From an uncultured Verrucomicrobiales bacterium (GTDB lineage: Bacteria; Verrucomicrobiota; Verrucomicrobiia; JADLBR01): a stretch of 64,000 nt of DNA. The position numbers and the translations under genes are program-made. Numbering within the stretch: position 1 is the first letter of the stretch; each line of letters starts with the position of its first letter. Below the pieces are notes generated by a model, which had not been told where the DNA came from, searched no databases, and saw only the letters and a list, made by a program, of their open reading frames with translations. The stretch is from assembly GCA_964651705.1 (NCBI GenBank), contig CAZYWZ010000014.1, positions 9,743-73,742 of the forward strand. Reading direction: 5' to 3'. Shown in pieces: positions 30,696-55,091 of the stretch.

Positions 30696-30720
30696 CCCAT
30701 CTGTTACCAGATGGGCTACA
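30696..30720. repeat. hairpin motif CCCATCTGttacCAGATGGGCTACA, family R5, copy 1
   Basis: 8-bp perfect stem and 4-nt loop. Also at 36800-36824 and 38528-38551 in the same orientation, each upstream of a minus-strand gene start. Confidence 0.7.
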
Positions 30721-30737
30721 TTCTTGATCGCCTAGAA

Positions 30738-31919: not shown

Positions 31920-31931
31920 GGGAGATTATTG

Positions 31932-32002
31932 AACCACGGATGGACACGGATGGGCGCGGATGGCGCGGCGGAATTGGTGTCCATCGGAGTCCATTCGTGG
32001 TT
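31932..32002. promoter_or_regulatory. candidate operator: three CGGATGG direct repeats at 10-bp spacing plus inverted copies (dyad AACCACGGATGGAC / GTCCATTCGTGGTT)
   Basis: Lies 15-85 nt upstream of the dgoD/manD start, the first gene of the 27-kb operon. The 10-bp periodicity puts repeats on one helix face. Confidence 0.35.
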
Positions 32003-32092
32003 GAGGGTGGGCCCGTGCCACCCGGAGGCCAACTGGCAAATTGCGTCAGTGATTTGCGAAACTGCGACATCCCGCGCCGCGGGGCCGGCGCC

Positions 32093-32150
32093 CGTAACGC
32101 GGACACTCCTGTCCGCGATCCATGGGCGGACAGGAGTGTCCGCCCTACGG
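32093..32150 (+). repeat. REP doublet, family R2 (GCGGACActccTGTCCGC / GCGGACAggagTGTCCGC), left
   Basis: Two 7-bp-stem hairpins in inverted orientation. Repeated at 32945-33039 (three hairpin units). The two sites flank RAYT 2. Confidence 0.8.
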
Positions 32151-32255
32151 CATTTGGGCTTGCCGGGTCGGGAGGGATTCGCGATAGGGTTCTCTCCGGG
32201 TATGGAGAAGGGTCGGGGAAATTCGTATCCTTTTGAATTCAAGGCTCGGGATGGG

Positions 32256-32918
32256 ATGGGGTGCGGCCCGCGCCCCCGGATCCCATTCATCGGCCTGAAC
32301 CAAGATGGGCAAATCCGCATCACATGTCGGCGATTGCCGCATTGGACTCAGGCGGGCGTGTCGTACTTTGTGACGTATCGTCTAGCCGATTCCGTACCAT
32401 TGAAACTATTGCGCCGATGGCGTGAAGAGAGGGATATTTGGTTGCGCTGGCACCCTGAGCCTTGGACCAGAAAGGTGCAGGAGGATTATGAAGAGCGATT
32501 CACCGAACGCATGGAGCGATGGGTGGATGCGGGAGTGGGCGCGTGTCAACTGCGCCGTCCCGAGATTCGAGCGATAGCCGAAAGGCACCTATTGCACGGC
32601 GATGGATCGAGGCACGATGTGGATTCGTATGTGATCATGCCAAACCACGTGCATGCGATCCTGACCCCGAGGGCGGGCAACGACCTGTTCGGGCTCCTCC
32701 AGGGCATCAAGGGCGTGAGCGCGCGCAACATCAACCGGCTCCTTGGCCGTATCGGCGCGAGGCTCTGGATGGAGGACGCGTATAACAGGATCGTGCGTGA
32801 CGCGAGAGAACTATGGGCGTTCCGCCAATACATCGCACTGAACCCGGTTAAGGCCCGGCTGCGTCCGAATGAATATACCCTGGTGTTCGCGGACGTGCTG
32901 GAGGCCAGCGGACCGTAG
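32256..32918 (+). CDS. REP-associated tyrosine transposase (RAYT) of a second, different group
   Basis: N-terminal RITCRRLPHWTQAGVSYFVTYRL, HuH motif IMPNHVHAIL, catalytic Tyr region AFRQYIALNPVKA. 220 aa. Only the C-terminal part of ORF-track 30711-32918 is taken; the rest is antisense to dgoD. Confidence 0.8.
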   Translation: MGCGPRPRIPFIGLNQDGQIRITCRRLPHWTQAGVSYFVTYRLADSVPLKLLRRWREERDIWLRWHPEPWTRKVQEDYEERFTERMERWVDAGVGACQLRRPEIRAIAERHLLHGDGSRHDVDSYVIMPNHVHAILTPRAGNDLFGLLQGIKGVSARNINRLLGRIGARLWMEDAYNRIVRDARELWAFRQYIALNPVKARLRPNEYTLVFADVLEASGP

Positions 32919-35450: not shown

Positions 35451-36779
35451 CTAATGTTTGGCGCGTCTATACGCTTGCGCAAGCAGGGAGATGGGGTGGA
35501 CGACGGGGCGGTCGGGGCGGGGGGAGGCGGCGATGCCGGTTTCCAGCTGGATGGTGCAGCCGGGGTTGGAGGTGACGACCGTCTCGGCGCCGGTGTTATC
35601 GATGTGGCCCAGTTTGCGATTCAGGAGTTTACCGGACATCACGGGCTGGGTGATATTGTACACTCCTGCGCTGCCGCAGCACCAGGTGCTCTCGTGGAGT
35701 TCGACGAGGTCCAGCCCGGGTATGGCGCGGAGGATCTCGCGGGGCTGCTGGGTGATCTTCTGGCCATGGCAGAGGTGGCAGGCCTCGTGGTAGGTGACCT
35801 TGCCGGGGCCACCGTTGCCGCAGCAGGTGGGCGGCGCGGCGGGCTTCTTGAAGCCGATCTCCACGAGGAACTCGTGGATATCACGGGCCTTCCGGTCCCA
35901 CGCCTCGGCGCGGGAGCGGTATCTGGGGTCGTCGTGCAAGAGGTGGCCGTAGTGTTTGAGGTGCGAGCCGCAGCCGGCGGCATTGATGATGATCGCGTCG
36001 AGTGTCTCCGGCCCGAAGGCGTCGATGTTGCGGCGGGCCAATTTCTTCGCCATTTCCCACTCGCCGTTGTGGCCGTGGAGCGAGCCGCAGCAGGCCTGGC
36101 CGCGGGGCGTGAAGACCTCGCATCCGTTTTCCAGCAGCACATCGACGGTATCGCGGTTGACGTGGGAGAAGACGAAATCGGCGACGCAGCCGGTGATCAT
36201 GCCGACGCGGCGCCTGACCTCGCCCTCGGGGCGCTCGGTCTCGCGGATGAGGTCGAAGGAGAACTTGGCCTGGACCTTGGGCGTGAGCGGCTCCAGTTCC
36301 CGGAACCGTTTCGGGGCGAGGGCCATGAGGCCGAATTTCCGGACGACCCATTGGAGGCCGGTGATTTGGTAGAGCCACATGAGGCGGCCGATCAGGCGCA
36401 GCAGCGGCGGGTGGCAGAAGGCCATCTCGATGAGCGACCACCGGATCAGGCGTCGGAAGGGGTTGTCGGAGACGCGGGTGCGCTCGACCTCGGCGCGGCC
36501 CATTTCGAACAGTTCGGCGTAATTCACGCCCGCCGGGCAGGCGGTCATGCAGGCGAGGCAACCGAGGCAGAAGGACATCTCCCTGGCGAACCCGCGCGAG
36601 ACGTCGAGCCGGCCGTCGGCGACCGCGCGCATCAGGGCGATGCGGCCGCGGGGGCTGGAGCGCTCCATGAGGGTCGCGTCGTAGGTGGGGCACGTCGGCA
36701 GGCACATGCCGCAGTGCATGCACTGCTGGAGGACCGAATAGTCGAGGTCCTTGAGGTAGCTGGAGGGGGAGGGGCTCAT
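35451..36779 (-). CDS. glcF: glycolate oxidase iron-sulfur subunit GlcF-like (2x4Fe-4S ferredoxin plus two CCG domains)
   Basis: CMHCGMCLPTCPTY and CLGCLACMTACPAG ferredoxin motifs. CCG motifs GCVADFVF...ACCG and HEACHLCHG...WCCGSAG. Confidence 0.8.
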   Translation of the reverse strand: MSPSPSSYLKDLDYSVLQQCMHCGMCLPTCPTYDATLMERSSPRGRIALMRAVADGRLDVSRGFAREMSFCLGCLACMTACPAGVNYAELFEMGRAEVERTRVSDNPFRRLIRWSLIEMAFCHPPLLRLIGRLMWLYQITGLQWVVRKFGLMALAPKRFRELEPLTPKVQAKFSFDLIRETERPEGEVRRRVGMITGCVADFVFSHVNRDTVDVLLENGCEVFTPRGQACCGSLHGHNGEWEMAKKLARRNIDAFGPETLDAIIINAAGCGSHLKHYGHLLHDDPRYRSRAEAWDRKARDIHEFLVEIGFKKPAAPPTCCGNGGPGKVTYHEACHLCHGQKITQQPREILRAIPGLDLVELHESTWCCGSAGVYNITQPVMSGKLLNRKLGHIDNTGAETVVTSNPGCTIQLETGIAASPRPDRPVVHPISLLAQAYRRAKH

Positions 36780-36799
36780 CGGATTCTCTCGCGGCGGGG

Positions 36800-36824
36800 C
36801 CCATCTGTTACCAGATGGGCTACA
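36800..36824. repeat. hairpin motif CCCATCTGttacCAGATGGGCTACA, family R5, copy 2 (glcD-glcF intercistronic)
   Basis: Identical to copy 1. 21 nt upstream of the glcF start. Confidence 0.7.
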
Positions 36825-36854
36825 TCGGGATCTTTCGCATCGGCGCGCATGGTG

Positions 36855-38219
36855 CTAGAACATCTTTCCGGGGTTGAGTATCCCGTTGGGGTCCATGGCC
36901 GCCTTGATGCGTTTGTGCAGGCCGATGCTGGCCTCGCCGAGCTGGCCGGGCAGGAACGGTTTCTTCGCGATGCCGACGCCGTGTTCGCCGGTGATCGTGC
37001 CACCGAGCCCGATGGCGCAGTCGAAGATTTCCTTCATGGCGGCCTCGACCTTTTCGATCTCCTCCCTGTTGCGCTCGTTGGTGAGGAAGGTGGGGTGGAG
37101 GTTGCCGTCGCCCATGTGGCCGAAGGTACCTATCTTGAGGCCGTACTTCTTCGAGATGTCCTGGATGAAGGCGACCATCTTGGCCAATTCGCTGCGGGGG
37201 ACCGTGGCGTCCTCCAGGATGACGGTCGGGGCGATGCGGGCCAGCGCGGAGAAGGCGGTGCGTCGGGCGGCGGCCAGGGTGGCGGATTCGATCGCGTCGG
37301 CGGCGATGCGCACGTCGCGCGCGCCGTTCTTGCGGGCGATCTCTGCCATGGCGGCGGCCTCCTCCTCGACGACGGCGGGGTGGCCATCGGTTTCCATCAA
37401 CAGGATCGCCTCGGCGTCCCGCGGCAGCCCGATCTTCGCGTAGTCCTCGACGCAGTTGATCGTGACCGAGTCCAGGAACTCCAGCGTGCAGGGGATGATC
37501 TTCGCCGCGATGATCGCGGAGATCGTCTCGGCGGCATCGGTCATCTTGCCGTAGGTGGCCAGCAGCGTCCGCTTGGCCTTCGGTTTCGGGATCAGGCGCA
37601 GCAGGACCTCGGTGATCACCCCCAGCGTCCCCTCGGAGCCGATGAAGAGATCCTTGATCGTGTAGCCCGCGACGTCCTTCACGCACTTGTTGCCCGTGTC
37701 CAGGACCGTGCCGTCCGCCAGGACGACCTTCAGTCCCATCACGTAGTTCCGGGTGATGCCGTACTTCAGGCCCCGCAGGCCGCCGGAGTTGTACGCGACG
37801 TTGCCGCCGATCGTGGAGATCTTCATCGAGCCGGGATCCGGCGGGTAGAACAGCCCCGCCTTGTCTGCGGCGTCGCTGATGGCCTGCGTCAGCGCCCCGC
37901 ACTCGACCCGCATGGTCAGGTTGCGCGCGTCCACCTCCAGGATCCGGTTCATCTTCACCGTGCACAGCACGATCGAACCCGCCGACGGCACGCTCCCCCC
38001 GGAAAGCCCCGTCCCGGAGCCGCGCGGCACCACCGCGATCTTTCTCTCGTCCGCCAGCCGCAGCACCGACGCCACCTGATCCGTCGATTCCACCATCACG
38101 ACGCACAGCGGGCGCTCGTTCAGCATCGCCGTCCCGTCGTACGCGTAGACCGCCAGCTCCTCCTCCTGGGTCAGCACGTTCCCCTCGCCCACGATCCGCT
38201 TCAGTGCCTCTATCGCCAT
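36855..38219 (-). CDS. glcD: FAD-linked glycolate oxidase / D-2-hydroxyacid dehydrogenase subunit GlcD
   Basis: VVPRGSGTGLSGGSVP FAD-binding motif, GYTIKDLFIGSEGTLGVITEV, DAEAILLMETDG. 454 aa. Confidence 0.85.
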   Translation of the reverse strand: MAIEALKRIVGEGNVLTQEEELAVYAYDGTAMLNERPLCVVMVESTDQVASVLRLADERKIAVVPRGSGTGLSGGSVPSAGSIVLCTVKMNRILEVDARNLTMRVECGALTQAISDAADKAGLFYPPDPGSMKISTIGGNVAYNSGGLRGLKYGITRNYVMGLKVVLADGTVLDTGNKCVKDVAGYTIKDLFIGSEGTLGVITEVLLRLIPKPKAKRTLLATYGKMTDAAETISAIIAAKIIPCTLEFLDSVTINCVEDYAKIGLPRDAEAILLMETDGHPAVVEEEAAAMAEIARKNGARDVRIAADAIESATLAAARRTAFSALARIAPTVILEDATVPRSELAKMVAFIQDISKKYGLKIGTFGHMGDGNLHPTFLTNERNREEIEKVEAAMKEIFDCAIGLGGTITGEHGVGIAKKPFLPGQLGEASIGLHKRIKAAMDPNGILNPGKMF

Positions 38220-38331
38220 GGTGAACCTTTCTTGTGAAGGGGCTCATTTATGCGTGAGGTCGATCAAAAAGGCAAGTGCGGGTGTGGCGCCTGTGGCGGG
38301 GCGTACACGGTCTGGCGATCGCGGTTGCGAA

Positions 38332-38494
38332 TTTTCGAGCTAGATCCCGTGTCCCGCCCGCGGGGCACCACCGGGGGTGAAAATGTAGGGCGCGAAATCC
38401 CTTTCGCGCCACGGGCAACCGGCAGGGCCCTCGTGGCGCGGATGGGAATCCGCGCCCTACAGGCCGATCCCGTGGCCGATTTTCGAGTCAGGTC
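38332..38494. repeat. composite REP/MITE-like element: 50-nt conserved head, GTAGGGCGCGAAATCCCTTTCGCGCCAC palindrome doublet (family R3), GATTTTCGAGTC tail
   Basis: Same three-part architecture at 53125-53268. Doublet units at 38385-38412 and 38433-38460 are mutual reverse complements. Followed by further hairpins CCCGCCCgatGGGCGGG and R5 copy 3 (38528-38551). Confidence 0.7.
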
Positions 38495-38604: not shown

Positions 38605-39621
38605 TCAATCCACCTGTTTGAACTGGCCGCCCTTGGACTGTTTGGCGAGGTCGCGGAGGGAGGAGCCAGCCTGGGGTGCGCCGAGGGCGATGGTGTTGAC
38701 CTTGATGTTCTTGGCCTTCTCGGCGAGGAGTTTAACGCCCTTTTCGGCCTCGGCCTTGCCCTCGGCGCCGTCGGTCATGAAGAAGATGACGTCGGGCGGG
38801 GGTTTCATGGCGAGCGCGACGCCGAGCGCGGGGACCCAATCGGTGCCCCAGACAAGTTCCTGTTTTTCGATCTCGCGGAGGCTGCGTCGCTTGTTGTTTT
38901 CGGTGGCCGCGATCCACTTGGCCTTGGGCACGTCATCGGGGTCCTTGGTGTGCCAGTTGTTGTTGTCCTTGTGGGCCCACCGTTTCTCTTTGACGTCCTC
39001 GCCGGCGAGCCAGACGGGTCCGGCGAAGAAGACGAGGGCGTAATTGGCCTCGGGGCTGAGGCCCTTGACGGCCCTGGAGAGTTCCTCGCGCATGAGGGCC
39101 TCGCGGGTCTTGCCGCCCTTGGCCTTGCCCTTCATGGATTCGGAGAGGTCGACGACGAAGGCGATGTACTGGCCGGTGGCCTTGAGGCCGAAGAACTCGA
39201 CGCCCATCATGCCCGCGGCGGAATTGCCGCGGCCTCCCATCATGGAGGTCACGTCAGAGACCTGATCGGAGACGAGGCTTGTGGGGTCGAACTCGAGCAT
39301 GTCGACGGGGACCTTTGGGATGTCGGGCAGCGCGAACTTGGCCTCGCGGACCGAGGCGATTTTCTGGTCGATGACGGGGCGGGGGGCGGCGGCCTCGAGT
39401 TCCTGTATGGTGACCTTCGGGTCGATGATCTTCGGGGGGATCTTGACGGGGCGGGAGACGAAGGTGGCCTCCGGCGGCGGGAAGAAGCGGGCGATGATCC
39501 AGTATAGCGCGCCGACGCCGATGATCGCGTGGACGACGATGCTGAGCGTGATGGCGGCGGCGACGATCTTGCGCCGTTTGCCCTTCGCTGTGTCTTTCAG
39601 CTCTTCGACGTTGACGGACAT
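38605..39621 (-). CDS. TonB-like membrane anchor (TM with S-x3-H, Pro-rich spacer) fused to a C-terminal von Willebrand factor A domain
   Basis: N-terminal KRRKIVAAAITLSIVVHAIIGVGALYWII (TonB-type S-x3-H signal-anchor), then PPPEATFVSRPVKIPPKIIDPKV proline-rich segment, then vWA-like IAFVVDLSESM...VIFFMTDGAEG (MIDAS-like D-x-S-x-S...T...D). Last gene of the exbB-exbD-exbD operon. Confidence 0.65.
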   Translation of the reverse strand: MSVNVEELKDTAKGKRRKIVAAAITLSIVVHAIIGVGALYWIIARFFPPPEATFVSRPVKIPPKIIDPKVTIQELEAAAPRPVIDQKIASVREAKFALPDIPKVPVDMLEFDPTSLVSDQVSDVTSMMGGRGNSAAGMMGVEFFGLKATGQYIAFVVDLSESMKGKAKGGKTREALMREELSRAVKGLSPEANYALVFFAGPVWLAGEDVKEKRWAHKDNNNWHTKDPDDVPKAKWIAATENNKRRSLREIEKQELVWGTDWVPALGVALAMKPPPDVIFFMTDGAEGKAEAEKGVKLLAEKAKNIKVNTIALGAPQAGSSLRDLAKQSKGGQFKQVD

Positions 39622-39653
39622 CGCGGAAACAACTCCCTTTCCCGCGCGCGGCG

Positions 39654-40103
39654 CTAGAAGGTTTCCTCCTCGAGGGCCCCGCCGAAGGTGACGCCTTGGA
39701 TGCCGGCGGCGGCGCAGGTGTTCATGACATCGATGACGCGCTGGTGGGGGACGGTGTCGTCGCCGTAGATGGTGACCAGCGCGTCGACCTTGTTGGCCTC
39801 GGCGGTCTTTCGGAAGCGCTCGAGGATGCCGCGGAGCTTGGGCAGTTCGGTGTTGTCCGGCGAGTCGACGGCGAGCTCGTTAAGGAAGACCTGGCCGTTC
39901 TCCCGGATGGTGATCCGCTGCTCGTCGGGAATGGTGAGGGCGCTCTCCTGGGAGACGGTGCCTGGGAGGGTGATGCCGACGTCGCTTTCCGGTTTGATGG
40001 GCTTGGCGGTGACCATGAAGAAGACGAGGAGCAGGAAGACCATGTCGATGAGGGGGCCCATCTGCATCTCGATGGTCTGCATGTCTCGGCGGCGGATCTT
40101 CAT
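39654..40103 (-). CDS. exbD: biopolymer transport protein ExbD/TolR (copy 2)
   Basis: MKIRRRDMQTIEMQMGPLIDMVFLLLVFFMV matches the ExbD/TolR N-terminal TM signature. 149 aa. Confidence 0.8.
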   Translation of the reverse strand: MKIRRRDMQTIEMQMGPLIDMVFLLLVFFMVTAKPIKPESDVGITLPGTVSQESALTIPDEQRITIRENGQVFLNELAVDSPDNTELPKLRGILERFRKTAEANKVDALVTIYGDDTVPHQRVIDVMNTCAAAGIQGVTFGGALEEETF

Positions 40104-40107
40104 GGCG

Positions 40108-40521
40108 TCACCGGCTGCTCCTGTAGGTGCCGAAGATGACCTCGATGGCGCCGGCCTCGGCGCAGGTCTGCATGATGCGGCGGATCTCCTTGAGGTGGGT
40201 GGTCTTGTCGGCGCGGACGTAGATGCGGAGGCCCGGCTGATCCTTGATGCGCCGCAGCAGGTGGGCCTTGAGGCCCGGGATGTCGGTGGGCCGCTCGCCA
40301 ATGAAGAGAGCGCCCTCGCTGTCGATGTTGATGATCTCCCGGCCCTTCCAATCGTCTGGGGTCTTGGCGGCCGAGGCGATGGGCAGTTTGACGTCGAGCT
40401 TGAGTTTCTCCTTGGTGATCTTCGTGGTGAGCATGAAGAAGATCAGGAGGAGGAAGACCATGTCGATCATGGGCGTCAGGGGGAACGCCACGTCGTCGGG
40501 CTCTCGTCGCTTGGCTCGCAC
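40108..40521 (-). CDS. exbD: biopolymer transport protein ExbD/TolR (copy 1)
   Basis: MRAKRREPDDVAFPLTPMIDMVFLLLIFFMLT. 137 aa. Confidence 0.8.
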   Translation of the reverse strand: MRAKRREPDDVAFPLTPMIDMVFLLLIFFMLTTKITKEKLKLDVKLPIASAAKTPDDWKGREIINIDSEGALFIGERPTDIPGLKAHLLRRIKDQPGLRIYVRADKTTHLKEIRRIMQTCAEAGAIEVIFGTYRSSR

Positions 40522-40561
40522 TTTGTTTGGGTTCTGGGTTCGCGGTTCTCTGTTCTGGGCT

Positions 40562-41377
40562 TCAGGGCGAGGGTGGCGCCTGCGGTGTTTCGGGTGGGGA
40601 GGCCGCGGACTTCTCGGCGGTGGCGAGTGAGACCTCGCCGGTGAAGAGGTCGAAACAGAGGCTGACGGCCTTCTCGATGTCGGTGAGGGCGCCCTGGAGG
40701 ATGTTGCGGAAGAAGAAGAAGCAGAACATGGCGGGGATGCCGACGATGAGGCCTCCGGCGGTGGTGATCATGGCCTCGCCGATGCCGCCCGCGAGGTCGG
40801 CGGGCTCGCTGCGGCCGGCGGCGAGTTCGCTGAAGGACTCGATCATGCCGAAGACGGTGCCGAGCAGTCCGAGCATGGGGGCGATGGTGGCGAAGAGGTT
40901 GAGGTAGTTGATCCAGAGCATGTAGCGGGTTTCCTCGTGGGCGATGGTCTCGGAGGCCGTCTCCTCCATGGCCTTCTTGTTGTAGAGGTCGCGGTTGAAA
41001 TCCACCTTCACCAGCGCGGCGAGGATCGTGGTGGTGAATGGGCTGGGGTTGGCGCGGCAGAACTGGAACGCGCCATCGACGTCGCGCTCGGACAACAGCT
41101 TGTTGGTTTGCGCGACGACCTCGGCGGGGAGCATCTTGCGACGGTTGATCTGGATGATGCAGTAGGCGGCGACGGCGATGGTGCCCAGGGATGCGGCGGC
41201 GATGAAGTGCATGAGGGGCCCGCCTATGAGGTAGAGGTCCCAGAGGGTTTGCTCGGTGGGGGCGGGGGGCGCCTTCGCGGCCGGCTCGGCCTGAGGTGCC
41301 GGTTGGGCGAGGGCGGCGGCCGCGGCGACCGCGAGGAGGCAGGCCATCACGGCGTGGCTGGGTGCTTTGATCTTCAT
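40562..41377 (-). CDS. exbB: MotA/TolQ/ExbB proton-channel protein with cleavable signal peptide and N-terminal periplasmic extension
   Basis: Signal MKIKAPSHAVMACLLAVAAAAALA. C-terminal TM bundle with LGLLGTVFGMIESF and GEAMITTAGGLIVGIPAMF motifs. Confidence 0.8.
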   Translation of the reverse strand: MKIKAPSHAVMACLLAVAAAAALAQPAPQAEPAAKAPPAPTEQTLWDLYLIGGPLMHFIAAASLGTIAVAAYCIIQINRRKMLPAEVVAQTNKLLSERDVDGAFQFCRANPSPFTTTILAALVKVDFNRDLYNKKAMEETASETIAHEETRYMLWINYLNLFATIAPMLGLLGTVFGMIESFSELAAGRSEPADLAGGIGEAMITTAGGLIVGIPAMFCFFFFRNILQGALTDIEKAVSLCFDLFTGEVSLATAEKSAASPPETPQAPPSP

Positions 41378-41427
41378 ATGCGCTGATTTCCTATTCTGGG
41401 TTCCGGGATGAGATTGGGGGTTCTGCT

Positions 41428-42360
41428 CTAGCGGTCCAGTTTGTTCAAGAGTTCCCTGGCGCGCTCGAGCCATTCGGGGTCGGGAAAATAGTCGATGATC
41501 TCGCGGAGCCGGGTCCGGGCGTCATCCTTCTTGTCGAGGTGCCGATAGATCTCGGCGGCGCGGTAGAGTCCGCGCGCGGTGGCGGAGGTGAACTCGGGGT
41601 GCATGGCTGCCGGGAGGAGGAAACCGTTGAGGGCCGCGTCGATGTGGTCCTGGCGCTCAGCCATCTGCTTTGGCATCTGTTCCCACTTGGGCCACTCGGT
41701 CTCCATCTGGCGGACGGAGGCCCATGCGATCTCGGCCCGGGCCAGGGTGGCCTCGAGCATTGCCTCGACGTGGGGGCCGGTTGTGGCGGCGCCGGGGTCG
41801 TCGATTTCCTTGGCCAGGGCCTGCGCTTTCTCGAGTTGGCCGATTTGGGCGTAGATCGTGAGGCGCTGCAGCCTGGCCCCAGTCTTCCGTGCCGGGTCCC
41901 ACGCCTTGGCCTCGATTTGCTGGAGGATGTCGAGGGCCGGTTTGGCGGCGGCCTCGTCGCGGGGCGTGGCGTGGATTCGGGCGAGTGCGGCGCCGGCGTC
42001 GGCGGCGGGGGACTCGGGGAGGGCGAGGTAGGGGCGGAGTTCCTTCCAGAGCGATTCGAGGCGGGCGCGCCGGTTGTCAGAGGGCGAGGCGATGGCCGAC
42101 CTCTCTTGCTCGTCCATCGCGAACTCGACTTTCTCGACGCGTTCCATGGGGTAGGGCACCCGGGCGGTGCCCGCGCCGATGGTGGAATTGAGCGTGATGC
42201 TCTGGCCGTCGTAGGCGACGATCTCCCCCTCTTGGGTGGAGCCGTCCTTGAGGTAGGCGGTGACCTGGCGGGCGGCGGGGAGGGGCGCGGCCCCGAGGCA
42301 CAGCGAGAACAAGAGGATGCCGTTGGGAATGCGGGCGCGGGCTGGGTGGCGGCGGTTCAT
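41428..42360 (-). CDS. secreted protein with N-terminal beta-rich domain and C-terminal TPR-like helical repeats
   Basis: Signal-like N-terminus ILLFSLCLGAAPLPA. 4-nt overlap with the upstream TPR gene (42357-42360). Helical repeats with A/L/E-rich periodicity. Confidence 0.55.
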   Translation of the reverse strand: MNRRHPARARIPNGILLFSLCLGAAPLPAARQVTAYLKDGSTQEGEIVAYDGQSITLNSTIGAGTARVPYPMERVEKVEFAMDEQERSAIASPSDNRRARLESLWKELRPYLALPESPAADAGAALARIHATPRDEAAAKPALDILQQIEAKAWDPARKTGARLQRLTIYAQIGQLEKAQALAKEIDDPGAATTGPHVEAMLEATLARAEIAWASVRQMETEWPKWEQMPKQMAERQDHIDAALNGFLLPAAMHPEFTSATARGLYRAAEIYRHLDKKDDARTRLREIIDYFPDPEWLERARELLNKLDR

Positions 42361-45209
42361 GTCGTGGGTGCGGCGGCCGGTGCGGGACCGAGCTCGCGGA
42401 GGCGTTTGGTCGCCTTCTTGTGGGCATCGAATTCCTTGAGCGTCTCGTTGTCGATCATTTCCTGATAGGTGTTGCGCGCCTCGGTCTGCATGCCGAGTTT
42501 CTCGAAGGCCTGGCCGCTCTCCCAGTAGGCATCGGCGACGAGATCGGTCCAGCGCCCATGCATGACATAGAGCCGCTGGAAGTAGGCGATGGCCTTCCTG
42601 GGGTCATTGCGCCTCATCTGGAGGCGGCCCAGCTCCAGCAGAGCCTCGGCGATGGGCCTGCCACGGAGGCCCTGTATCTCCAAGATGCGGTTCAGTTCGC
42701 CCGCGGCGCGCTCAAATTCTTGCCCGTCCGCGTAGATGGCGGCGCGGGTGCGGAGGACCTCGACGAGCAGGGGCGTGGAAGTGGAGACCGCCTCGAACTC
42801 CTCGAACTGTTTGAGCGCCTCATTGTTCTTGTTCTCGGCCCGTGCGATCAGGCCCAGGCCGAGATAGGCGCGGTCGCGGAACATGGAGCGCGGGTGCCAG
42901 GTGAGGATGGTCTTGTACAATTCTCGGGCCTTTCGCTTGCGGCCGGCGCGGCGCTCGGAATCGGCGATCTCGATCAGGACGAGGGCTGGCAGGGCCTTTG
43001 GGTCGACGTCGTTGGCGACGCGGGCCAGCTCGGCGTCTGCGGCCTTCGGGTTCTGCGGGCGGAGGAGGGCCGAGCGGAGCCAGAGGCAGCGCGCGAAGAG
43101 GGTGTGTTTCCCTTGCTTTTCGGCCCCTGCGGCCATCTCGCGCAATTTTCCAAAGAGGGCCTCGCGCTGCTCGGGGCCGGCGTAGTACTTCCCGAGCGTC
43201 AGGAGCATGGACTCGATGGCCTCGGCCTCGGGGTTGTTGCCGTGGCGGGCGATGGCGTCCCAATAGAGTTCCCGGGCGTTTTCGGACTCGCCGCGGATCC
43301 GCTTGAGGTTGGCCAGGTTCTGGATCGCCTCGGGGGCGCGGCCGCTGTCGGGGAATTCGTCGATGAACTTCTGGAGGTGGGTTTCAAGTTCGGGGGTTCG
43401 CTCGAGGGTCTGGAGCGCCTTGGCGATGCGGAAGACGGCGTGCTCGTAGAGGCGGGGGATGCGGGTGGTGACCTTGCGGAAGACCTCGAGACCCTGCGGC
43501 ACCTCGCCGATGGCGTAGAGCGAATCGCCGAGTGCGTTGCGCGCCTCGTCGGCCACCTGGGATTCGGGGTTCGCGTCGAGAAATTCTTTCAGCTCGGGGA
43601 CGGCCTCGGCGAATCGTTCCGAATTGAACAGGCAGTGCGCCTTGCGATACGCCGCATCGACGGCGAACTCGCCGTTGGGGTGTTTGGCGAGGTAGGCGAT
43701 GAAGCCCTCGCGGGCCTCGGGGTACGCCTTCTTATAATAGTGGCCCATCGCGCGCCAATACCGGGCCTGCTCGGCATATTCGCCCCCGGGGTTGGCCTCG
43801 AGGTATTTGCCGAGCATGCGGATGGCGTCATCCTGCTGGTCGGCCATCATGTAGGCATAGCCGGATAGGAACAGGCAACGCGCCGCCTGCGCGAAGTCCG
43901 TGAATTCCGTGCCGGTGCGCTCGAAGGTGGCGCCCGCACCCTTGAATCGCATGAGGCGCATCTCGGCCTCGCCGCGGAGGTAGAGCGCGGAGGGGAGCAA
44001 CCCGCGGGCGTCGGGGAACTTCTTCTCGAAGGCCTTGGCCTCTTCGATGAGCCTCGGCCAAGATTCCATGTCCGCGAGGCAGGCGAGCATCATGTAGTGG
44101 GATTGCTTGAGCAACTCGCTCTCGGGCATCTTGGCGACCAGGTCGCCTAGCGCGAGATAGGCCTCCCGGCTCCGGTCGAGGGCGTCGAAGCACTGGGCGA
44201 TCCGTGCCCCCCGTGCGGTGTCATAGTCGGGGATCTTCTTCAATTGCTCGATCTCGGCCTTGATGCGCGCGGCGAGGGCGTCGAGGGACATCAGGTCGTA
44301 CGGGTCGGCGTCTCCGCGGGCCTTGAGGCGCGCGATGCGGTAGTCGAGTTGCGCGAGTCGTTCCTGTTGGCGGGCGAGGATGCGTTCCAGGGTCCAGACG
44401 CGCTGAAAGACCTGAAGCGCCTTGCGGGGCTGCTCTTTCTTAAACAGCTCGTTGCCAAGCTGGATCGAGAGCAAGTGGAACCCGGCGAGGGTCAGGTTGT
44501 CTCTGGATTCGGAGTCGAAGGCCATGACCATCGCCGTGGCGCCATCGAGGTCCTCGGCCTTCAGCAGGGCGTGGAGGCGGAGCGCGGTGGCCTGGGAGTT
44601 GATGGCGGGATCCAGCTTGCCCACCATGGGTTCCAAAAAATTGGCCAGCTCCTTGAACTTCTCATCGATTTCCAGCGAAAGTGCGATCACGAGCCGGGCG
44701 TAATCGAGGCGCGCCCCGGCGGGATATTTGGCGAGATAATCCTGCATGGCCTTGCGGGTGGCCTCCCCCTCTTTCTCCTGCAGGTGGCAGACGCCCTTCC
44801 AGAACAGCATCTCCTCGGCGGCGACGCCCTGGGAGTATTCCTTCAGGTAGCGATCAACCGGCCCGAGGGCTTCCTTCCATTTGCCCTGGTGGATGCGGCA
44901 GAGCGCCAGCATCCGCACGATCTCGTCGAGGCGCTCGACCTTCAGGCGCCCCGCCTTGATGTCCGCGAGCAGGCCCACGAGCTTCGTCTCCGCCGAGGCG
45001 TATTTCTTCCCGCGGAAGTCCATGATCGCGGCATTCAGGACCAGGGTCTTATCCTTCGGGGTCTGTTCTTCGACCATGGCGGGTTCCGGCTGCGGCGCAC
45101 CCTTGCCCTTCTTCTTCTTGCCCTTTTGCTGCGCGTGGGAGGAGAGTGGGCCGATGAAGAGGGCGCACAGAAGGAGCAGCGCGGTGCCGGTAGCTTGCCT
45201 TCGGCGCAT
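42357..45209 (-). CDS. large secreted tetratricopeptide-repeat (TPR) protein, CpoB/BatC-like scaffold
   Basis: About 950 aa. Signal MRRRQATGTALLLLCALFIGPLSSHA (start could also be 45227). Many W/Y-x-x-A-x-x-x-Y 34-residue repeats. Confidence 0.65.
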   Translation of the reverse strand: MRRRQATGTALLLLCALFIGPLSSHAQQKGKKKKGKGAPQPEPAMVEEQTPKDKTLVLNAAIMDFRGKKYASAETKLVGLLADIKAGRLKVERLDEIVRMLALCRIHQGKWKEALGPVDRYLKEYSQGVAAEEMLFWKGVCHLQEKEGEATRKAMQDYLAKYPAGARLDYARLVIALSLEIDEKFKELANFLEPMVGKLDPAINSQATALRLHALLKAEDLDGATAMVMAFDSESRDNLTLAGFHLLSIQLGNELFKKEQPRKALQVFQRVWTLERILARQQERLAQLDYRIARLKARGDADPYDLMSLDALAARIKAEIEQLKKIPDYDTARGARIAQCFDALDRSREAYLALGDLVAKMPESELLKQSHYMMLACLADMESWPRLIEEAKAFEKKFPDARGLLPSALYLRGEAEMRLMRFKGAGATFERTGTEFTDFAQAARCLFLSGYAYMMADQQDDAIRMLGKYLEANPGGEYAEQARYWRAMGHYYKKAYPEAREGFIAYLAKHPNGEFAVDAAYRKAHCLFNSERFAEAVPELKEFLDANPESQVADEARNALGDSLYAIGEVPQGLEVFRKVTTRIPRLYEHAVFRIAKALQTLERTPELETHLQKFIDEFPDSGRAPEAIQNLANLKRIRGESENARELYWDAIARHGNNPEAEAIESMLLTLGKYYAGPEQREALFGKLREMAAGAEKQGKHTLFARCLWLRSALLRPQNPKAADAELARVANDVDPKALPALVLIEIADSERRAGRKRKARELYKTILTWHPRSMFRDRAYLGLGLIARAENKNNEALKQFEEFEAVSTSTPLLVEVLRTRAAIYADGQEFERAAGELNRILEIQGLRGRPIAEALLELGRLQMRRNDPRKAIAYFQRLYVMHGRWTDLVADAYWESGQAFEKLGMQTEARNTYQEMIDNETLKEFDAHKKATKRLRELGPAPAAAPTT

Positions 45210-45459
45210 CCTGCTCCCTCGGATCATGATGCCAAAAGTTTCCAGATTGAACGTTGACGCACAAGGGGGAAAAGGGGTTTTGGGACGGTGGCCCTGAGCG
45301 ATCGGAGCGCGGGCGTTGGCCCAGGTGCGCGGGTCCCGGCTCCGCCGGGAGCCAAAGCGGTGTCGCCGCTGCGCTCTGCCACCGCAGTCCAAAAGTGGGT
45401 CGCCTCCCGCGCTGCCCTCGAGAGTGGGCGCGCAACCCCAACCAACATGAAGTTTCAGG

Positions 45460-46473
45460 TCAGAACTGCCGGAGGAAACGGAGGTCGTTCTGCTCGAAGA
45501 GGCGGATATCTGGGATGCCGTGGAGGATCATGACGATGCGTTCGACGCCGAGGCCGAAGGCGTAGCCGGTGAGGGCCTCGGGGTCGTAGCCGACGGCCTG
45601 GAAGACGGCGGGGTCGACCATGCCGCAGCCGGCGATCTCGAGCCAGTCTTTGCCCGCGCGGCCGAGGCTCTCGGAGGAGAGGTCGACCTCGAATGAGGGC
45701 TCGGTGAAGGGGAAGAAGTGGGGGCGGAAGCGCATGCGGGTGCCGGGGCCGAGGAGTTCGCGGAAGAAGAATTCCAAGGTGCCCTTGAGGTCGGCGAGGG
45801 AGACGCCGCGATCCACGCAGAGGCCCTCGATCTGGTGGAAGGAGGAGGAGTGGGTGGCGTCGATCTCGTCGCGGCGGTAGCAGCGGCCGGGGCAGATGAC
45901 GCGGACGGGCGGGGGCTGCGACCGCATGACGCGGATCTGGACCGGCGAGGTCTGGGTGCGCAGGAGGAAGCGCCCGTATTTCGGGTCCGCGGGGCGATCG
46001 AGGTAGAAGGTGTCCTGCTCGTTGCGGGCGGGGTGGTCGGGCGGGGTGTTGAGGGCGTCGAAGTTGTGCCATTCCGTTTCCACATCCGGCCCTTCGGCGA
46101 TGGCGAAGCCGAGGCGGCGGAAGATGGAGACGATGCGGTCGGTGACCTGCGTGATGAGGTGGAGGTGGCCGTCGGGCACCGGCCGGCCGGGGAGGGTCAC
46201 GTCGATGCCGGCCTCGTCGGTGGCGGCCTCGAGCCGTTCCTTGGCCGCGTCGAACAGCGACTGGATGCGGGTCTTGAATTCGTTGAGGCGCTGGCCGACC
46301 TCGCGCTTCTTCTCGTTGGGCACCTCCTTGAGGCGCTCCATGAGGGCGGGTATGGTCCCCTTGCGGGAGAGGAATTTCAGGCGGGCCTCCTCGAGGGCCT
46401 TGGCGTCGGCGACGGCATCGAGGGCCCGCGTCGCCTCGCGCTCCAATTCGGGGATCTGTTCGAGAATGTTCAC
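45460..46473 (-). CDS. pheS: phenylalanine--tRNA ligase alpha subunit
   Basis: Class II aaRS motifs FRPHFFPFTEPSFEVD and GCGMVDPAVF..GYAFGLGVERIVMILHGIPDIR. GTG start with a GGAG RBS 6 nt upstream. 337 aa. Confidence 0.9.
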   Translation of the reverse strand: MNILEQIPELEREATRALDAVADAKALEEARLKFLSRKGTIPALMERLKEVPNEKKREVGQRLNEFKTRIQSLFDAAKERLEAATDEAGIDVTLPGRPVPDGHLHLITQVTDRIVSIFRRLGFAIAEGPDVETEWHNFDALNTPPDHPARNEQDTFYLDRPADPKYGRFLLRTQTSPVQIRVMRSQPPPVRVICPGRCYRRDEIDATHSSSFHQIEGLCVDRGVSLADLKGTLEFFFRELLGPGTRMRFRPHFFPFTEPSFEVDLSSESLGRAGKDWLEIAGCGMVDPAVFQAVGYDPEALTGYAFGLGVERIVMILHGIPDIRLFEQNDLRFLRQF

Positions 46474-46581
46474 GTCTGGCTCCAGAGGGGAATTTAATAA
46501 GTGGCGGAGGGCGGGGAGGGAAGCGCGAATCTGGGGGAATGCCGGCGGTTGGCACTGGCTTCACCGGTCGGTGTTTCCGAT

Positions 46582-46613: not shown

Positions 46614-49600
46614 CTATCGGTGGAGTTGGGACTGCGTCGACAACCGGGCGATCCCCCCGCGGCTGACCTGTTGCCATTCGAATACCCGATCGTACGTGAT
46701 GCTGGAGCGCCCCGCCGTCATCCGTGCCCTGAGGATCAGGGTATCGCCCAACTTGTTGCCGGGCGGCACCTCCTGCCCTCTGGTGAGCGGCATGTTCTCC
46801 GTGCCGGGAGACACCTCTACGATCGGGGCGAAGCTCGTGTCGAACACATTCCAAGCGGTTCCTGGTCGCTGAAAAGAGATCCATCCGGCGATCTCTCCCT
46901 GGCCGGTCTCGTCCGTGATCGAGGCGGTTATCTCCAGGGTCGCCCCGGGCTGCAGGATTTCCATGCCCGTCTTGCACGACCACGTCATGGTACCGGAGTG
47001 GACGCCCTTCAGTTCCCCAAGTGTCCATTCCTCGCGCGAGTGAAGCGAGCCGTCGGTCGCCGTTCCGCTCTGTTTCGAGTAATCCGCCAGATTGTACTCT
47101 TCGCTCTTGTGGGTCTTCCGGGCGATGGATTTCCAGTGGAATCCGGCGCCGCCGGATGTATCCGGGGAGGGGGTGGGCGGCGAGCCCCTGCCGCCAACCT
47201 GCGGGTTGGCTCCCTCGTCCGATATCCGCACGACGACGGATGCCGGATCCTTTATTCCCGTGTTGAAGGCGACGACGAAGATCATGTCTTCCGGGCCGAC
47301 ATCCAGGCGGGTCGCAAATCCCTCCTTTTCGAGGCGCAGCCTGGGCGCGGGCTGGCCGCCGGGTTTCAGTGCCCGCCTGTCGATATCTTTCTCGTCTTTC
47401 CACTCCGTGCTCAGCGGCAAGACATAGACATCGGCCACCGTGGCAGGATCCCTTCGGACGAGCTCGACCTTCAGGGTCCTGTTGGTGAGCGTGCCCGCGT
47501 CCGACTTGGCGGGTTCGGGTTTCACGGCCCACAGGCGGATGGCGTAGTATGCCGGCACGGCAAAGGTATGCTCGATTGGGGCCGCCGCGGCCCCGCCCTT
47601 TGCCGGGAGCGGATAGGGGTCGAATTTCTCGGCGCAGTCCCTTTGCGGGACCGCGGTCAAGAGGACGCTGTCTTTGCTGAAGAGCAAGAAACCGGCGAAG
47701 TCCCGGTAGATCGTTTGCAGGCTTTCGCCGGTCCGTTCCTTGAGAAAGCTCCCGAGATTGTCGATCACGGGGTCAAGGCTTGGCCTGGCATCGACGATGG
47801 TGTGGGCGGTGGATACGATGGTGGGGTCTTTCCGGTTGGCCACGGCCAAATGCATTTCCTTGAAAGGTGCCTTCTTTTGGTTGACCAGATAGTCGATGAA
47901 CCAGGCCTTGTCGTACTCCAGTTCCTTGAAATCCGGGTGCGGGGGCAGCCCGTAGTAATTTAGGGGGAAATCCAGCAGCTTGGGATAGACAGTTCCGTGG
48001 CCGACCAATTGCTTCGACTGGGTGACTAGGCGCCCGGCGACGAAGTCGGCGCAGGCCTCGGCCCACCAGAGGTACGTGCCCCCCGTCTGCGCGTACGGGT
48101 GGTCGAACCAGCGACGGCCGATGACCTTATGCTGGAAGGCGTGAAAGAGCTCGTGCGCCGCACGGAATTTCAGGTTGGTAGCGCTCCAGGAATCCTTGGT
48201 GTCTGACCGGAAGTGGATGCGGTCGTAGTCGGGCTCGAAACAGCCGGGCCCCCCGCCGGGGACAAGCTTCGCCATCCAACTGTCGATCTTGACCACGATC
48301 GGGGTATCTGGCGGCTCCAGCCCAAGATCCGTCACGTAATACGCCATGGCCTCGTCGAGCGCGGCGCCCAGATCCCACACGAACAGCGGGATGCCGGGCC
48401 GTTCGCCGACGGGTATAGGTGGTCCCACGCGGTTGTTGCCCCACGCCAGATCACCCACGTGCGGGCTATTCGCCAGCGCGTCAGAGTCGCACAGGACGCG
48501 GAAGGCGGCGCTCATGCGGGGACGATTGAGCGTCCACTCGTACGCGGTGTGCGGGATGGTCCCGTTCATCTGGAAGTAGGAATTCGCAGCCCATTTGAGA
48601 TACCTTCCACCCTCCCTAACCGCGCCGCTCACCCCCTCGGTGATCCATTTGACGGGGCACAGGTGCAGGGTGCGCGTGATAATGGCCCGGTCGCCCTCGT
48701 CCACCTCCACCGGCATGCGGATCCACTTGTGTGGGCCCTCGTCCCAACGCCAGCCGCTGATCTGGTCCGCGGGCGCCAGATGCGGATTGAGGTCCTTCGG
48801 ATCGTACTTAGCCCGGATGACAATGCCCTGGTCGAAAACATTGGTCTTTCCGACGGTGATGTCGGCGGTGGCGAGGGTGCGGAAGCAACTGTCAATGGGA
48901 CTGAAGTCGTCACGGCCGCTGGCCCTGGTGATGTGGATCGCATCGGCGTCAGTGACCGAGCCTCTCGGGACGAGCACCGTGATGTCACCTGCTGAGTGTG
49001 CGATGAAGGCGCCATCGGGCTCGTGGGGGCGCGGCCCCGGCCCGCTGCCGGGCGATACTTCGTGTCCGAGGACTTCGACGCGGGCCAGGTGCAGGTAATC
49101 CCGGCGGCGCAGGCCGAGTTTGACGTATCGGGCGGGCTCCGGGGTCGACAGGTGGATATCCCATGCCGCCCTCACGTCGTCGAGTCTGGCGACCTCGCGC
49201 CACGAGCGCCGATCGCCAGACAACCAGACGGTGAGGCCCCTGGCCCGCTCTCGCAACTGGCGTCGGCGGTTCTCGACCCTCAGCCCGGTGATGGTGCTCG
49301 GGCGACCAAGGTCGATCTCTATATACGGGCTGTCTTCAAGAGCGGTATGGAACGCGAACTCCTCGGCCAGTTCGGGCTGGTCAGGGAGGCGCGCCGTGTG
49401 GAGAGGGCCAACGCCCGTGAGGAGAACTGGCAGTGGGCGGTAATCGCGCGCGTAGTCGGAACTTGTGCGATAGGTGGCGCTGAGGGAAATGACCGTGTCC
49501 TTTTCCGGGCCCGAAGGCGGCAAAGATGCGGTCTCCCCGCATTGGCCCGACCGAGCGGGCATGAGCGTCGCGACGGCGACGATGGCCAGTGACACCACGC

Positions 49601-49634
49601 GGGATGGATGCCGGTGGGGTAACCATCCGCCCAT
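46614..49634 (-). CDS. large secreted protein with HExxH zinc-metallopeptidase-like motif (HELFHAFQH)
   Basis: Start MGGWLPHRHPSRVVSLAIVAVATLMPA (signal) preceded by an AT-rich TATACATTATAT box. ~1006 aa. The ORF track extends to 49748. Confidence 0.6.
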   Translation of the reverse strand: MGGWLPHRHPSRVVSLAIVAVATLMPARSGQCGETASLPPSGPEKDTVISLSATYRTSSDYARDYRPLPVLLTGVGPLHTARLPDQPELAEEFAFHTALEDSPYIEIDLGRPSTITGLRVENRRRQLRERARGLTVWLSGDRRSWREVARLDDVRAAWDIHLSTPEPARYVKLGLRRRDYLHLARVEVLGHEVSPGSGPGPRPHEPDGAFIAHSAGDITVLVPRGSVTDADAIHITRASGRDDFSPIDSCFRTLATADITVGKTNVFDQGIVIRAKYDPKDLNPHLAPADQISGWRWDEGPHKWIRMPVEVDEGDRAIITRTLHLCPVKWITEGVSGAVREGGRYLKWAANSYFQMNGTIPHTAYEWTLNRPRMSAAFRVLCDSDALANSPHVGDLAWGNNRVGPPIPVGERPGIPLFVWDLGAALDEAMAYYVTDLGLEPPDTPIVVKIDSWMAKLVPGGGPGCFEPDYDRIHFRSDTKDSWSATNLKFRAAHELFHAFQHKVIGRRWFDHPYAQTGGTYLWWAEACADFVAGRLVTQSKQLVGHGTVYPKLLDFPLNYYGLPPHPDFKELEYDKAWFIDYLVNQKKAPFKEMHLAVANRKDPTIVSTAHTIVDARPSLDPVIDNLGSFLKERTGESLQTIYRDFAGFLLFSKDSVLLTAVPQRDCAEKFDPYPLPAKGGAAAAPIEHTFAVPAYYAIRLWAVKPEPAKSDAGTLTNRTLKVELVRRDPATVADVYVLPLSTEWKDEKDIDRRALKPGGQPAPRLRLEKEGFATRLDVGPEDMIFVVAFNTGIKDPASVVVRISDEGANPQVGGRGSPPTPSPDTSGGAGFHWKSIARKTHKSEEYNLADYSKQSGTATDGSLHSREEWTLGELKGVHSGTMTWSCKTGMEILQPGATLEITASITDETGQGEIAGWISFQRPGTAWNVFDTSFAPIVEVSPGTENMPLTRGQEVPPGNKLGDTLILRARMTAGRSSITYDRVFEWQQVSRGGIARLSTQSQLHR

Positions 49635-49768
49635 GGATATAATGTATAGGCTGTCGCATGGGAGTCGAGTGGAATGCGGGCGATGGCGAGCGGTTGCCGC
49701 GGCGTGCGCCACCGGGGTTAAATTCGGATTGGGCGGTGGAACAGACATTCCTGTCTGCCCCCGGGAAT

Positions 49769-50001
49769 CCCGTGCCCCAAATCCTCGCGTAAGGATCGCT
49801 CCCCGAGTGACGTACCCTCAACGAACCGTATAGGACACAGGCACGTCACTTTGCCAAGTTTTGTAGGGCGCGGATTCCTATCCGCGCCACGCACGGTCCT
49901 GCCGGTTGCCCGTGGCGCGAAAGGGATTTCGCGCCCTACATTCCCAAGTGTTGCGCCTCCGGGTAGTGCCTTACGCGAGGATTTGGGTCCGTGCGCACGG
50001 G
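49769..50001. repeat. MITE-like palindromic element: ~26-nt terminal inverted repeats (CCCGTGCCCCAAATCCTCGCGTAAGG / CCTTACGCGAGGATTTGGG..CACGGG) enclosing an R3 palindrome doublet (49863-49939)
   Basis: The internal doublet is the reverse-complement arrangement of the 38385-38460 doublet. TIR arms match 23 of 26 positions with one 7-nt insertion. Confidence 0.6.
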
Positions 50002-50138
50002 CCTTGACGTGGGCTACCAGAGACGCCGGATGGCAGACAACTTGCCCGCCTTGGGCCGGGGCATTGTCTGCCTGGTGCGGATGGGCGACCGCTTGCGAGC
50101 TAGTGATTTGACATCGTGCCGTTGGCGGACTCACGCTC

Positions 50139-53030: not shown

Positions 53031-53091
53031 GATTTGCGCGGCGCGGCACGGCCGTGGCGCAGAGCCGGGGTGTGGTGGGCCCCGGTGGCGC

Positions 53092-53268
53092 GGGCCAAAC
53101 GCCTTGGGGCGTTCGGCTGCGGGAATCTTCGAGCTAGATCCCGTGCCCCGCGTGCGGGGCACCACCGGGGCGGAAAATGGTAGGCTGCGCCTTGGCGCAC
53201 GCTGCCGAATCGAATGTCCGCGTGCGCCAAGGCGCAGCCTACATCGCGACCCGATTTTCGAGTCGGGT
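53092..53268. repeat. composite REP/MITE-like element (R4 motif, R7 head TTCGAGCTAGATCCCGTGCCCCGCGTGCGGGGCACCACCGGGG, TAGGCTGCGCCTTGGCGCAC palindrome doublet, GATTTTCGAGTC tail)
   Basis: Same head and tail as 38332-38494. The core doublet is a sequence variant (53180-53200 and 53222-53242, mutual reverse complements). Confidence 0.65.
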
Positions 53269-53274
53269 CCCTGG

Positions 53275-55060: not shown

Positions 55061-55091
55061 GGGCGCAGCCGCCCCGCTAAGATGTCCATCA

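Follow-up and report, generated by a model that had tools for sequence, protein, structure and literature searches.

A run of six minus-strand genes (45227..38605) in a 64-kb window from an uncultured Verrucomicrobiales bacterium (contig CAZYWZ010000014.1 of assembly GCA_964651705.1; "the window" denotes this whole stretch of 64,000 nucleotides) is the subject of this work. The genes are tightly packed and encode, in this order, a tetratricopeptide repeat (TPR) protein, a 310-aa secreted protein, an ExbB proton channel, two ExbD proteins and a 338-aa protein in which a membrane-anchored stalk carries a von Willebrand A (vWA) domain (Table 1). An original prediction, made from the sequence alone, had seen here a candidate envelope system driven by the proton-motive force (PMF). 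Its six co-directional genes were all recovered on the minus strand where it had placed them, and the 4-nt overlap between the stop of the TPR gene and the start of the 310-aa gene was confirmed; the gaps between the other genes are 4 to 50 nt. A promoter scan upstream of gene 1 yielded nothing useful. As far as the architecture is concerned, the locus probably represents an operon for a PMF-driven envelope machine of the 'vWA force transducer' kind.

Motor genes and TPR partners

ExbB matches MotA_ExbB in Pfam (5.8e-25), its best solved relative is the long-form ExbB of Serratia (7ajq, 2.8e-11), and the channel Thr and Glu motifs are retained as GLLGTVFG and GIGEAMITTAGG. As predicted, the protein appears to have a signal peptide of its own, its N-terminus (MKIK-AVMACLLAVAAAAALA|QP) looking by eye like a Sec signal peptide; an alternative ATG lies at 41473. 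ExbD1 (ExbD, 9.5e-25) retains the aspartate of the transmembrane (TM) helix in PMIDMVFLLL, which aligns with the proton-binding Asp of its best solved relatives, the ExbD proteins of Serratia and E. coli. ExbD2, starting 4 nt past the end of ExbD1, is a distinct paralogue (ExbD, 7.5e-23) with the TM aspartate in PLIDMVFLLL, and has E. coli TolR as its best solved relative (4.5e-6) as well as a match to the NCBIfam tolR model (5.8e-16). The predicted count of one ExbB and two ExbD genes was thus found, but the word 'stoichiometry' attached to it does not hold, since only genes were counted.

Both TPR partners recall CpoB of the Tol-Pal system, as had been proposed. The 956-aa protein matches TPR_6 (1.4e-26) and YfiO (4.4e-15) in Pfam and, over six stretches, the NCBIfam model TIGR02795 (tol_pal_ybgF), whose cut-off of 90.1 bits it passes with a score of 138 bits; one of its homologues is labelled 'TolA-binding protein' in a JGI source. 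For the 310-aa protein, Pfam gave a weak C-terminal TPR match. Its AlphaFold2 (AF2) model, which was built from 3 sequences and is of moderate quality (predicted local distance difference test score, pLDDT, 75), begins with a segment like a signal peptide, continues with a beta domain of five strands (residues 32-80) and ends in an alpha-solenoid; in structure searches it resembles only generic TPR proteins. The family profile, in turn, matches CpoB (6g5s) over residues 260-308 (E 5.7e-5), so that the last repeat is CpoB-like. As the family has no conserved Cys, the 310-aa protein is not a lipoprotein. In size and architecture both proteins are far from CpoB, the 956-aa protein having about four times its length.

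The 338-aa stalk-vWA protein

The last gene of the operon encodes a protein that starts with K15-R-R-K18, followed by a TM helix with S27-x3-H31. In its AF2 model (mean pLDDT 78), helix 12-46 has a pLDDT >90, and the same holds for most of residues 140-338, which form a confident alpha/beta domain. The residues S27-x3-H31-x3-G35-x2-A38 lie on one face of the TM helix, and S27, H31, G35 and A38 are invariant in an alignment with nine relatives, as are E51, A52 and F54 after the helix; among 59 representatives of the stalk family described below, conservation of H31 reaches at least 90%. The 93-residue linker contains 14% proline and no EP/KP repeats, and carries the conserved motifs 'IPPKIIDPK', 'LDQKIASLR', 'FALPDIP', 'FDPS' and 'FFG'. 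It is therefore only moderately proline-rich, and the 'proline-rich spacer' of the original prediction had to be replaced by a conserved, motif-rich stalk which is not of low complexity. Within the putative transducer, conservation is highest in the stalk and not in the head.

For the head, Pfam and NCBIfam scans returned vWA families only (VWA_3, 5.8e-7), and the top Foldseek matches were the vWA domains of ITIH1, Bacteroides BatB and Cav alpha2delta. TonB_C, TonB_2 and TolA (PF03544 and PF13103 included) were not found in the 338-aa protein by Pfam at E<=0.1, nor by NCBIfam, in agreement with the proposal that a vWA head stands in place of the TonB C-terminal domain. A canonical TonB or TolA was considered as an identity of this protein and ruled out by the Pfam/NCBIfam and PDB searches. 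The metal ion-dependent adhesion site (MIDAS) of the head is complete, with D158-x-S160-x-S162 (D158-L-S-E-S162), T260 and D284. Across the family, whose heads split into two vWA subtypes, D158, S160 and D284 are invariant, but R, K or G takes the place of the threonine in seven of nine aligned relatives. Apart from the window protein, only the closest named relative (L001) has T260, and among the seven aligned motor-linked homologues, too, L001 alone retains it. Because the threonine is missing in most linked relatives, a metal-mediated contact is not the general mechanism, and the predicted transmission of force to a MIDAS contact does not hold as a general rule.

Conservation of the operon in Verrucomicrobiota

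The order TPR (915-943 aa)/306-381 aa/ExbB/ExbD/ExbD/vWA was found in eight independent loci at roughly 27-47% identity and with unrelated flanks, namely MlaEFD in L001, ALAD and an H+-PPase in a Methylacidiphilales locus (L004), and elsewhere a Na/H exchanger and transposases. As the same order recurs between different flanks, the six-gene arrangement is not due to chance. Homologues of gene 1 occupy the first position in all eight loci, and homologues of gene 2 are present in every one of them (phmmer 4e-34 to 6e-55); the 310-aa gene is hence a constant sixth member of the operon, added by this analysis. The synteny that the original prediction counted on is retained, with the vWA gene linked to exbB-exbD-exbD down to about 30% identity, and together with the lack of a TonB C-terminal domain this supports its overall reading of a PMF transducer.

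All relatives of the 338-aa protein that were found belong to Verrucomicrobiota. Seven loci came from a scan of metagenomes, and a scan of genomes returned mostly a Verrucomicrobiales paralogue without the anchor His. This paralogue family is large (about 75 loci), His-less with few exceptions and never adjacent to exbBD, and its vWA head is like that of the window protein (FFAGPxW, LVWGTxW, IFFMTDG). A force transducer would be expected to show motor linkage that tracks the Ser/His anchor, as is seen when linked and His-less loci are compared.

The same data bear on the possibility that an ordinary Ton system, with its TonB encoded elsewhere, is merely followed by chance by a Bat-like membrane vWA gene. 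The Bat operon (BatA-E) indeed combines membrane-anchored vWA and TPR proteins, BatB is a top structural match of the window head, membrane-anchored vWA proteins are common, and the His-less paralogues exist without a motor. However, the vWA gene directly follows exbD2 in eight loci with different flanks, the invariant Ser/His face and the post-helix motif occur only in the motor-linked lineage, and Bat operons, unlike the window, have no ExbB/ExbD motor. Bat anchors are also not known to carry the Ser/His face. MoxR ATPase and DUF58 genes, the Bat partners, are absent from the operon neighbours, and no TonB-dependent receptor was seen among the window ORFs (open reading frames) scanned, which renders a chance neighbourhood the least probable of the explanations considered.

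Some further observations were made at the relatives. In L001, a divergent second cluster of ExbB, ExbD, a META-domain protein and two small ORFs lies upstream of the operon (1908-4414), and MlaE, an ABC ATPase and MlaD (lipid-asymmetry genes) lie downstream of it (11096-13371). In L091 the operon is intact except that a PDDEXK_3 (putative nuclease) gene (9118-9513) has been inserted between its ExbD genes. Several genomes have two tandem copies of the paralogue, about 1.3 kb apart.

Relation to published vWA transducers and modularity of the stalk

The same architecture and the idea of force transduction have been in print since June 2025 ('Origin and Evolution of Bacterial Periplasmic Force Transducers', Mol Biol Evol; PMC12204202), so that the module is not new as the original prediction had it; the prediction reached the published hypothesis independently. 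The paper describes proteins from Proteobacteria, Planctomycetes, Verrucomicrobia, Bacteroidetes and Rhodothermaeota that are tethered to the inner membrane and in which an SHLS-type helix is followed by a disordered linker containing a motor box and by a vWA head; they were met while a species without a discernible TolA or TonB was examined, and in the paper's own examples AlphaFold3 models place the helix histidine at the docking site of TonB/TolA (PMC12204202). Their function is given as unknown, and no phenotypes were reported (PMC12204202). When the 338-aa protein was compared with residues 1-149 of Tichowtungia transducer 1, BLASTP gave an E value of 1e-13 and 32% identity over window residues 21-145, with SxxxH, 'A-A/T-F' at the candidate stator box, 'ASV..F.LPD' and 'FFG' all included in the alignment. 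Within this alignment, E51-A52-T53-F54, a region of low confidence in AF2, aligns with 'DAAF' of the Tichowtungia protein, whose stator box has been located at about residues 55-60 (PMC12204202). Since the stalk aligns with this seed, the locus is, judged by sequence, a new instance of the published, computationally defined family.

The Tichowtungia aerotolerans locus and the window have the Ser/His TM helix, the disordered linker with an established or, in the window, candidate stator box and the vWA head in common, and the locus content of TPR, tolQ-like, two tolR-like and vWA genes is shared between published loci and the window (PMC12204202). Differences concern the transducer, present in Tichowtungia as two paralogues of about 475 aa and in the window as one protein of 338 aa, and its head, which in the window is of a different vWA subtype with a complete MIDAS and closer to the unlinked Verrucomicrobiales paralogues. 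Furthermore, one TPR gene is mentioned in the text of the paper (PMC12204202), whereas the window and its relatives also have the constant 310-aa secreted protein.

An exhaustive HMMER search with the 145-residue stalk (window 39187-39621, minus strand) found only 85 representative clusters among 1.84 billion proteins. Pfam analysis of 59 of these 85 representatives revealed vWA heads in 16, PA14-like heads in 13, cytoplasmic SAM domains in five and one fusion of SAM and a Ser/Thr kinase. The PA14-like matches are weak (25-29 bits; P0145 28.9 bits, P0151 25.2 bits), and the relatives with variant heads share the Ser/His helix, 'PPEATF', 'LDQKIASLR' and 'FALPD'. As vWA and PA14-like heads as well as SAM/kinase domains occur on the same stalk, it looks like a rare module with interchangeable heads and sometimes with cytoplasmic signalling domains.

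Comparison with Ton, Tol-Pal and Agl-Glt

With the Ton system the operon shares homologous ExbB/ExbD proteins with their functional residues, a single-pass partner with S-x3-H and a periplasm-spanning linker. It differs in having two different ExbD genes and no TonB C-terminal domain, and its conserved, motif-rich linker contrasts with the EP/KP repeats of the Ton spacer; the N-terminal 145 aa have no sequence similarity to solved TonB chains. Plug and TonB_dep_Rec were not detected in the large ORFs scanned in the 64-kb window, which bears out the predicted lack of a TonB-dependent receptor nearby. Closer to Tol-Pal (TolQ-TolR-TolA-TolB-Pal-CpoB) are the homologous motor with ExbD2 nearest to solved TolR, the CpoB/YbgF-type TPR units and a housekeeping-like distribution; TolA domain III, TolB and Pal were found neither in the six genes nor in their neighbours (Pfam, NCBIfam).

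A third comparison is that with Agl-Glt of Myxococcus, and a gliding or adhesion motor of this type, in which an ExbB-ExbD1-ExbD2 stator would drive a periplasmic relay to vWA-mediated adhesion, was weighed as an alternative. One TolQ-like and two different TolR-like genes are found in both, as in AglR with AglQ/AglS, and Agl-Glt likewise includes TPR proteins in the periplasm (GltC, D, E) as well as a vWA protein, the adhesin CglB; the cytoplasmic SAM/kinase domains on some stalks recall the cytoplasmic FHA and GYF domains of GltG and GltJ, and a motor of this type has been suggested as a possibility (PMC12204202). Yet the Agl-Glt transducers GltG and GltJ have TonB-C-like domains, and CglB is a separate lipoprotein of the outer-membrane surface with a beta-propeller, whereas the window vWA head is tethered to the inner membrane via about 95 residues. 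GltG/GltJ-type transducers, GltA/B/H/K and CglB were not seen in the window or the syntenic loci, and genes for a GltA/B/H/K-like barrel, MglA or AglZ were not found near the cluster in any locus. Most Verrucomicrobiota are not known to glide either, and we regard such a motor as very unlikely here.

Surrounding genes and a possible role in glycan import

The window has a G+C content of 65% and contains no tRNA genes. Its large ORFs comprise glycoside hydrolases, a sulfatase, an MFS transporter and sugar-type regulators, a profile typical of polysaccharide-degrading Verrucomicrobiota, with dense sets of glycan-degradation genes at 4502-29816 and 46614-59563. The operon neighbours, a convergent 927-aa ORF (35454-38237, plus strand) and an upstream 369-aa ORF (45455-46564, minus strand), had no Pfam match at E<=0.001 and are not conserved beside the operon in other genomes. 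Further away lie a 735-aa ORF (30711-32918, plus strand), whose sole Pfam match, close to the C-terminus, is to an IS200-like Y1 transposase domain and is weak (a score of 23.1 bits, equal to the cut-off), and a full-length DUF4914 protein (179-2125, minus strand; 1036 bits) adjoining a LysR-type regulator (2628-3518).

Table 1. Features of the operon and of the window, and loci of related proteins (window coordinates unless a locus is named)
Feature	Position or locus	Strand	Basis or remark
Gene 1, 956-aa secreted TPR protein with CpoB/YbgF-type and BamD-type TPR units	42357..45227	-	Pfam, NCBIfam
Gene 2, 310-aa secreted protein, beta domain and TPR-like solenoid	41428..42360	-	Pfam, AF2
Gene 3, ExbB/TolQ-type proton channel, 271 aa	40562..41377	-	Pfam
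Gene 4, ExbD1, 137 aa	40108..40521	-	Pfam
Gene 5, ExbD2, 149 aa	39654..40103	-	Pfam, NCBIfam
Gene 6, 338-aa inner-membrane stalk with vWA head, putative force transducer	38605..39621	-	Pfam, AF2, Foldseek
Gene 6, TM helix codons, about residues 19-45	39487..39567	-	AF2 and alignment
Gene 6, E51-A52-T53-F54 codons, candidate motor/stator box	39460..39471	-	Alignment
Gene 6, vWA domain codons, residues 140-338	38608..39204	-	Pfam, AF2, Foldseek, alignment
Terminator-like hairpin, about 195 nt past gene 6, between convergent genes	38389..38410	-	Consensus scan only, weak evidence
Syntenic locus, unclassified Verrucomicrobiota metagenome-assembled genome, closest named relative	L001		45% identity
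Syntenic locus, Methylacidiphilales	L004		31% identity
Syntenic loci	L087-L090		Four metagenome contigs
Syntenic locus	L091		GCA_964351865
Syntenic locus	L092		A JGI contig
Lone His-type relatives	L084 450-1517; L085 646-1713; L086 5457-6085
Paralogue loci	L003, L008-L083		Verrucomicrobiales, Akkermansiaceae, Luteolibacter, Rubritalea, Roseibacillus, Haloferula
Stalk relatives with variant heads	P0145, P0151, P0153, P0159		PA14-like head, or SAM or SAM and Ser/Thr kinase before the stalk
Beta-helix protein	6670-8946
DUF6259	8972-11200
GH65/GH95-like protein	11228-14716
GH129-like protein	14724-16850
GDSL esterase	20516-21943
Beta-helix protein with GH141 insertion domain	23856-27263
DUF5696	26249-28432
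MFS transporter	28422-29816
F5/8 type C protein	46614-49748
DUF5703 and Laminin_G_3 protein	50139-53030
Sulfatase	56520-57992
Ceramidase-like protein	57989-59563

With glycoside hydrolases, a sulfatase and sugar-responsive regulators so abundant in the window, a machine for glycan capture and import has to be considered, in which the motor would pull a ligand-binding head and draw polysaccharides or glycoproteins through the outer membrane and into the periplasm, as the counterpart in Verrucomicrobiota of TonB-energised SusCD uptake. Verrucomicrobiota have been reported to accumulate glycans in the periplasm, and PA14, a carbohydrate-binding fold, is the likeness of some heads on the same stalk, weak as these matches are. 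According to annotation tables, mul1A and mul1B of Akkermansia muciniphila (Amuc_0544, Amuc_0543), which are involved in mucin transport, lie beside ExbD (Amuc_0546) and ExbB (Amuc_0548). A similar order, resembling Amuc_0548 to Amuc_0543, was observed in a Verrucomicrobiales locus (L026 5841-11604, minus strand) with ExbB, ExbD, ExbD and then three secreted TPR proteins (403, 651 and 329 aa), but no transducer gene. The likeness to MUL1 is one of gene order; the TPR proteins of L026 have no phmmer similarity to those of the window, and a search with the 956-aa TPR protein returned 13 matches, none from Akkermansia, with candidates being swamped by generic TPR proteins. In addition, the glycan genes that flank the operon here do not accompany it in other loci, no outer-membrane channel gene is linked to it, and it is present in methanotrophic Methylacidiphilales. 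A role in glycan import appears rather unlikely.

Proposed mechanism and role

In the mechanism that we propose, the ExbB pentamer would enclose an ExbD1-ExbD2 heterodimer, and the stalk protein would dock on the outside of the pentamer via S27/H31, with the E51-A-x-F54 segment pairing with the periplasmic domain of ExbD. Proton flow would then pull the stalk and the vWA head toward the inner membrane, and the head would exert force on a partner across the periplasm. The strongest candidates for this partner are both TPR proteins of the same operon or, with its gene lying elsewhere, a protein of the outer membrane or one associated with peptidoglycan.

Several results weigh against this reading and have to be set beside it. 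The six-protein machine is known here from genes and single-chain models, which give no sign of physical contact, and in the AF2 monomer of the 338-aa protein residues 50-136 are of low confidence and form no strand at the proposed motor box. From the SHLS face only S and H are retained, the L and S positions being A38 and I42. Searches with the N-terminal 145 aa against the PDB gave chance-level matches and no TonB or TolA chain; the KRRK, TM helix and S-x3-H of the predicted 'classical TonB anchor' are thus present, but as a motif-level resemblance only and not as detectable TonB/TolA homology. The head is poorly conserved, and its MIDAS threonine is often absent. Three His-type relatives (L084-L086, from one metagenome, Ga0224723) stand without an adjacent motor, L086 following divergent accB/accC-like genes and L084 being followed by a LacI-type regulator, so that the linkage of vWA gene and motor is frequent but not universal. 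Finally, tolB and pal were not seen in the 64-kb window, and PA14-like heads on the stalk would suit ligand or glycan binding as well as a Tol-like role.

Regarding the task of such a machine, we prefer a Tol-like role over nutrient import. Tethering or constriction of the outer membrane, as a general envelope function with the giant CpoB-like TPR protein as coordinator, is suggested tentatively and as one possibility. It is favoured because both TPR partners are CpoB-like, because housekeeping genes surround the operon in other genomes, with MlaEFD at L001 and ALAD and H+-PPase at L004, and because it is present in Methylacidiphilales, which are methanotrophs with small genomes. A further reason is that relatives from the Planctomycetes-Verrucomicrobia-Chlamydiae (PVC) lineages with tolB-pal or tolQ-tolR but without an identifiable TolA have been catalogued (PMC12204202). 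The locus described here is a clean and compact example for the question opened by that work (PMC12204202): it has a single transducer whose MIDAS is complete, and its six genes are tightly coupled. It also offers testable details, namely the residues H31 and S27, the box E51-A-x-F54, the 310-aa partner that is always present and the swapping of vWA and PA14 heads.

From this locus one may go further, to the more doubtful possibility that Verrucomicrobiota and related PVC bacteria have their missing 'TolA' in the stalk protein, as part of a third PMF-driven envelope machine. A conserved stalk that binds the motor would here have exchanged the TolA/TonB head for swappable ligand-binding heads, vWA in the window and PA14-like in other proteins. 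Working with both TPR proteins, such a machine might serve to tether the outer membrane or to constrict it, or else might draw glycans into the periplasm, and some versions might be wired to cytoplasmic SAM/kinase signalling. Ton and Tol are the two textbook routes by which energy of the inner membrane reaches the outer membrane in diderm bacteria. A third class of transducer with a different head, if true, would widen this picture. It could also account for the way in which the outer membrane is stabilised or used in PVC bacteria, where a TolA is hard to find.

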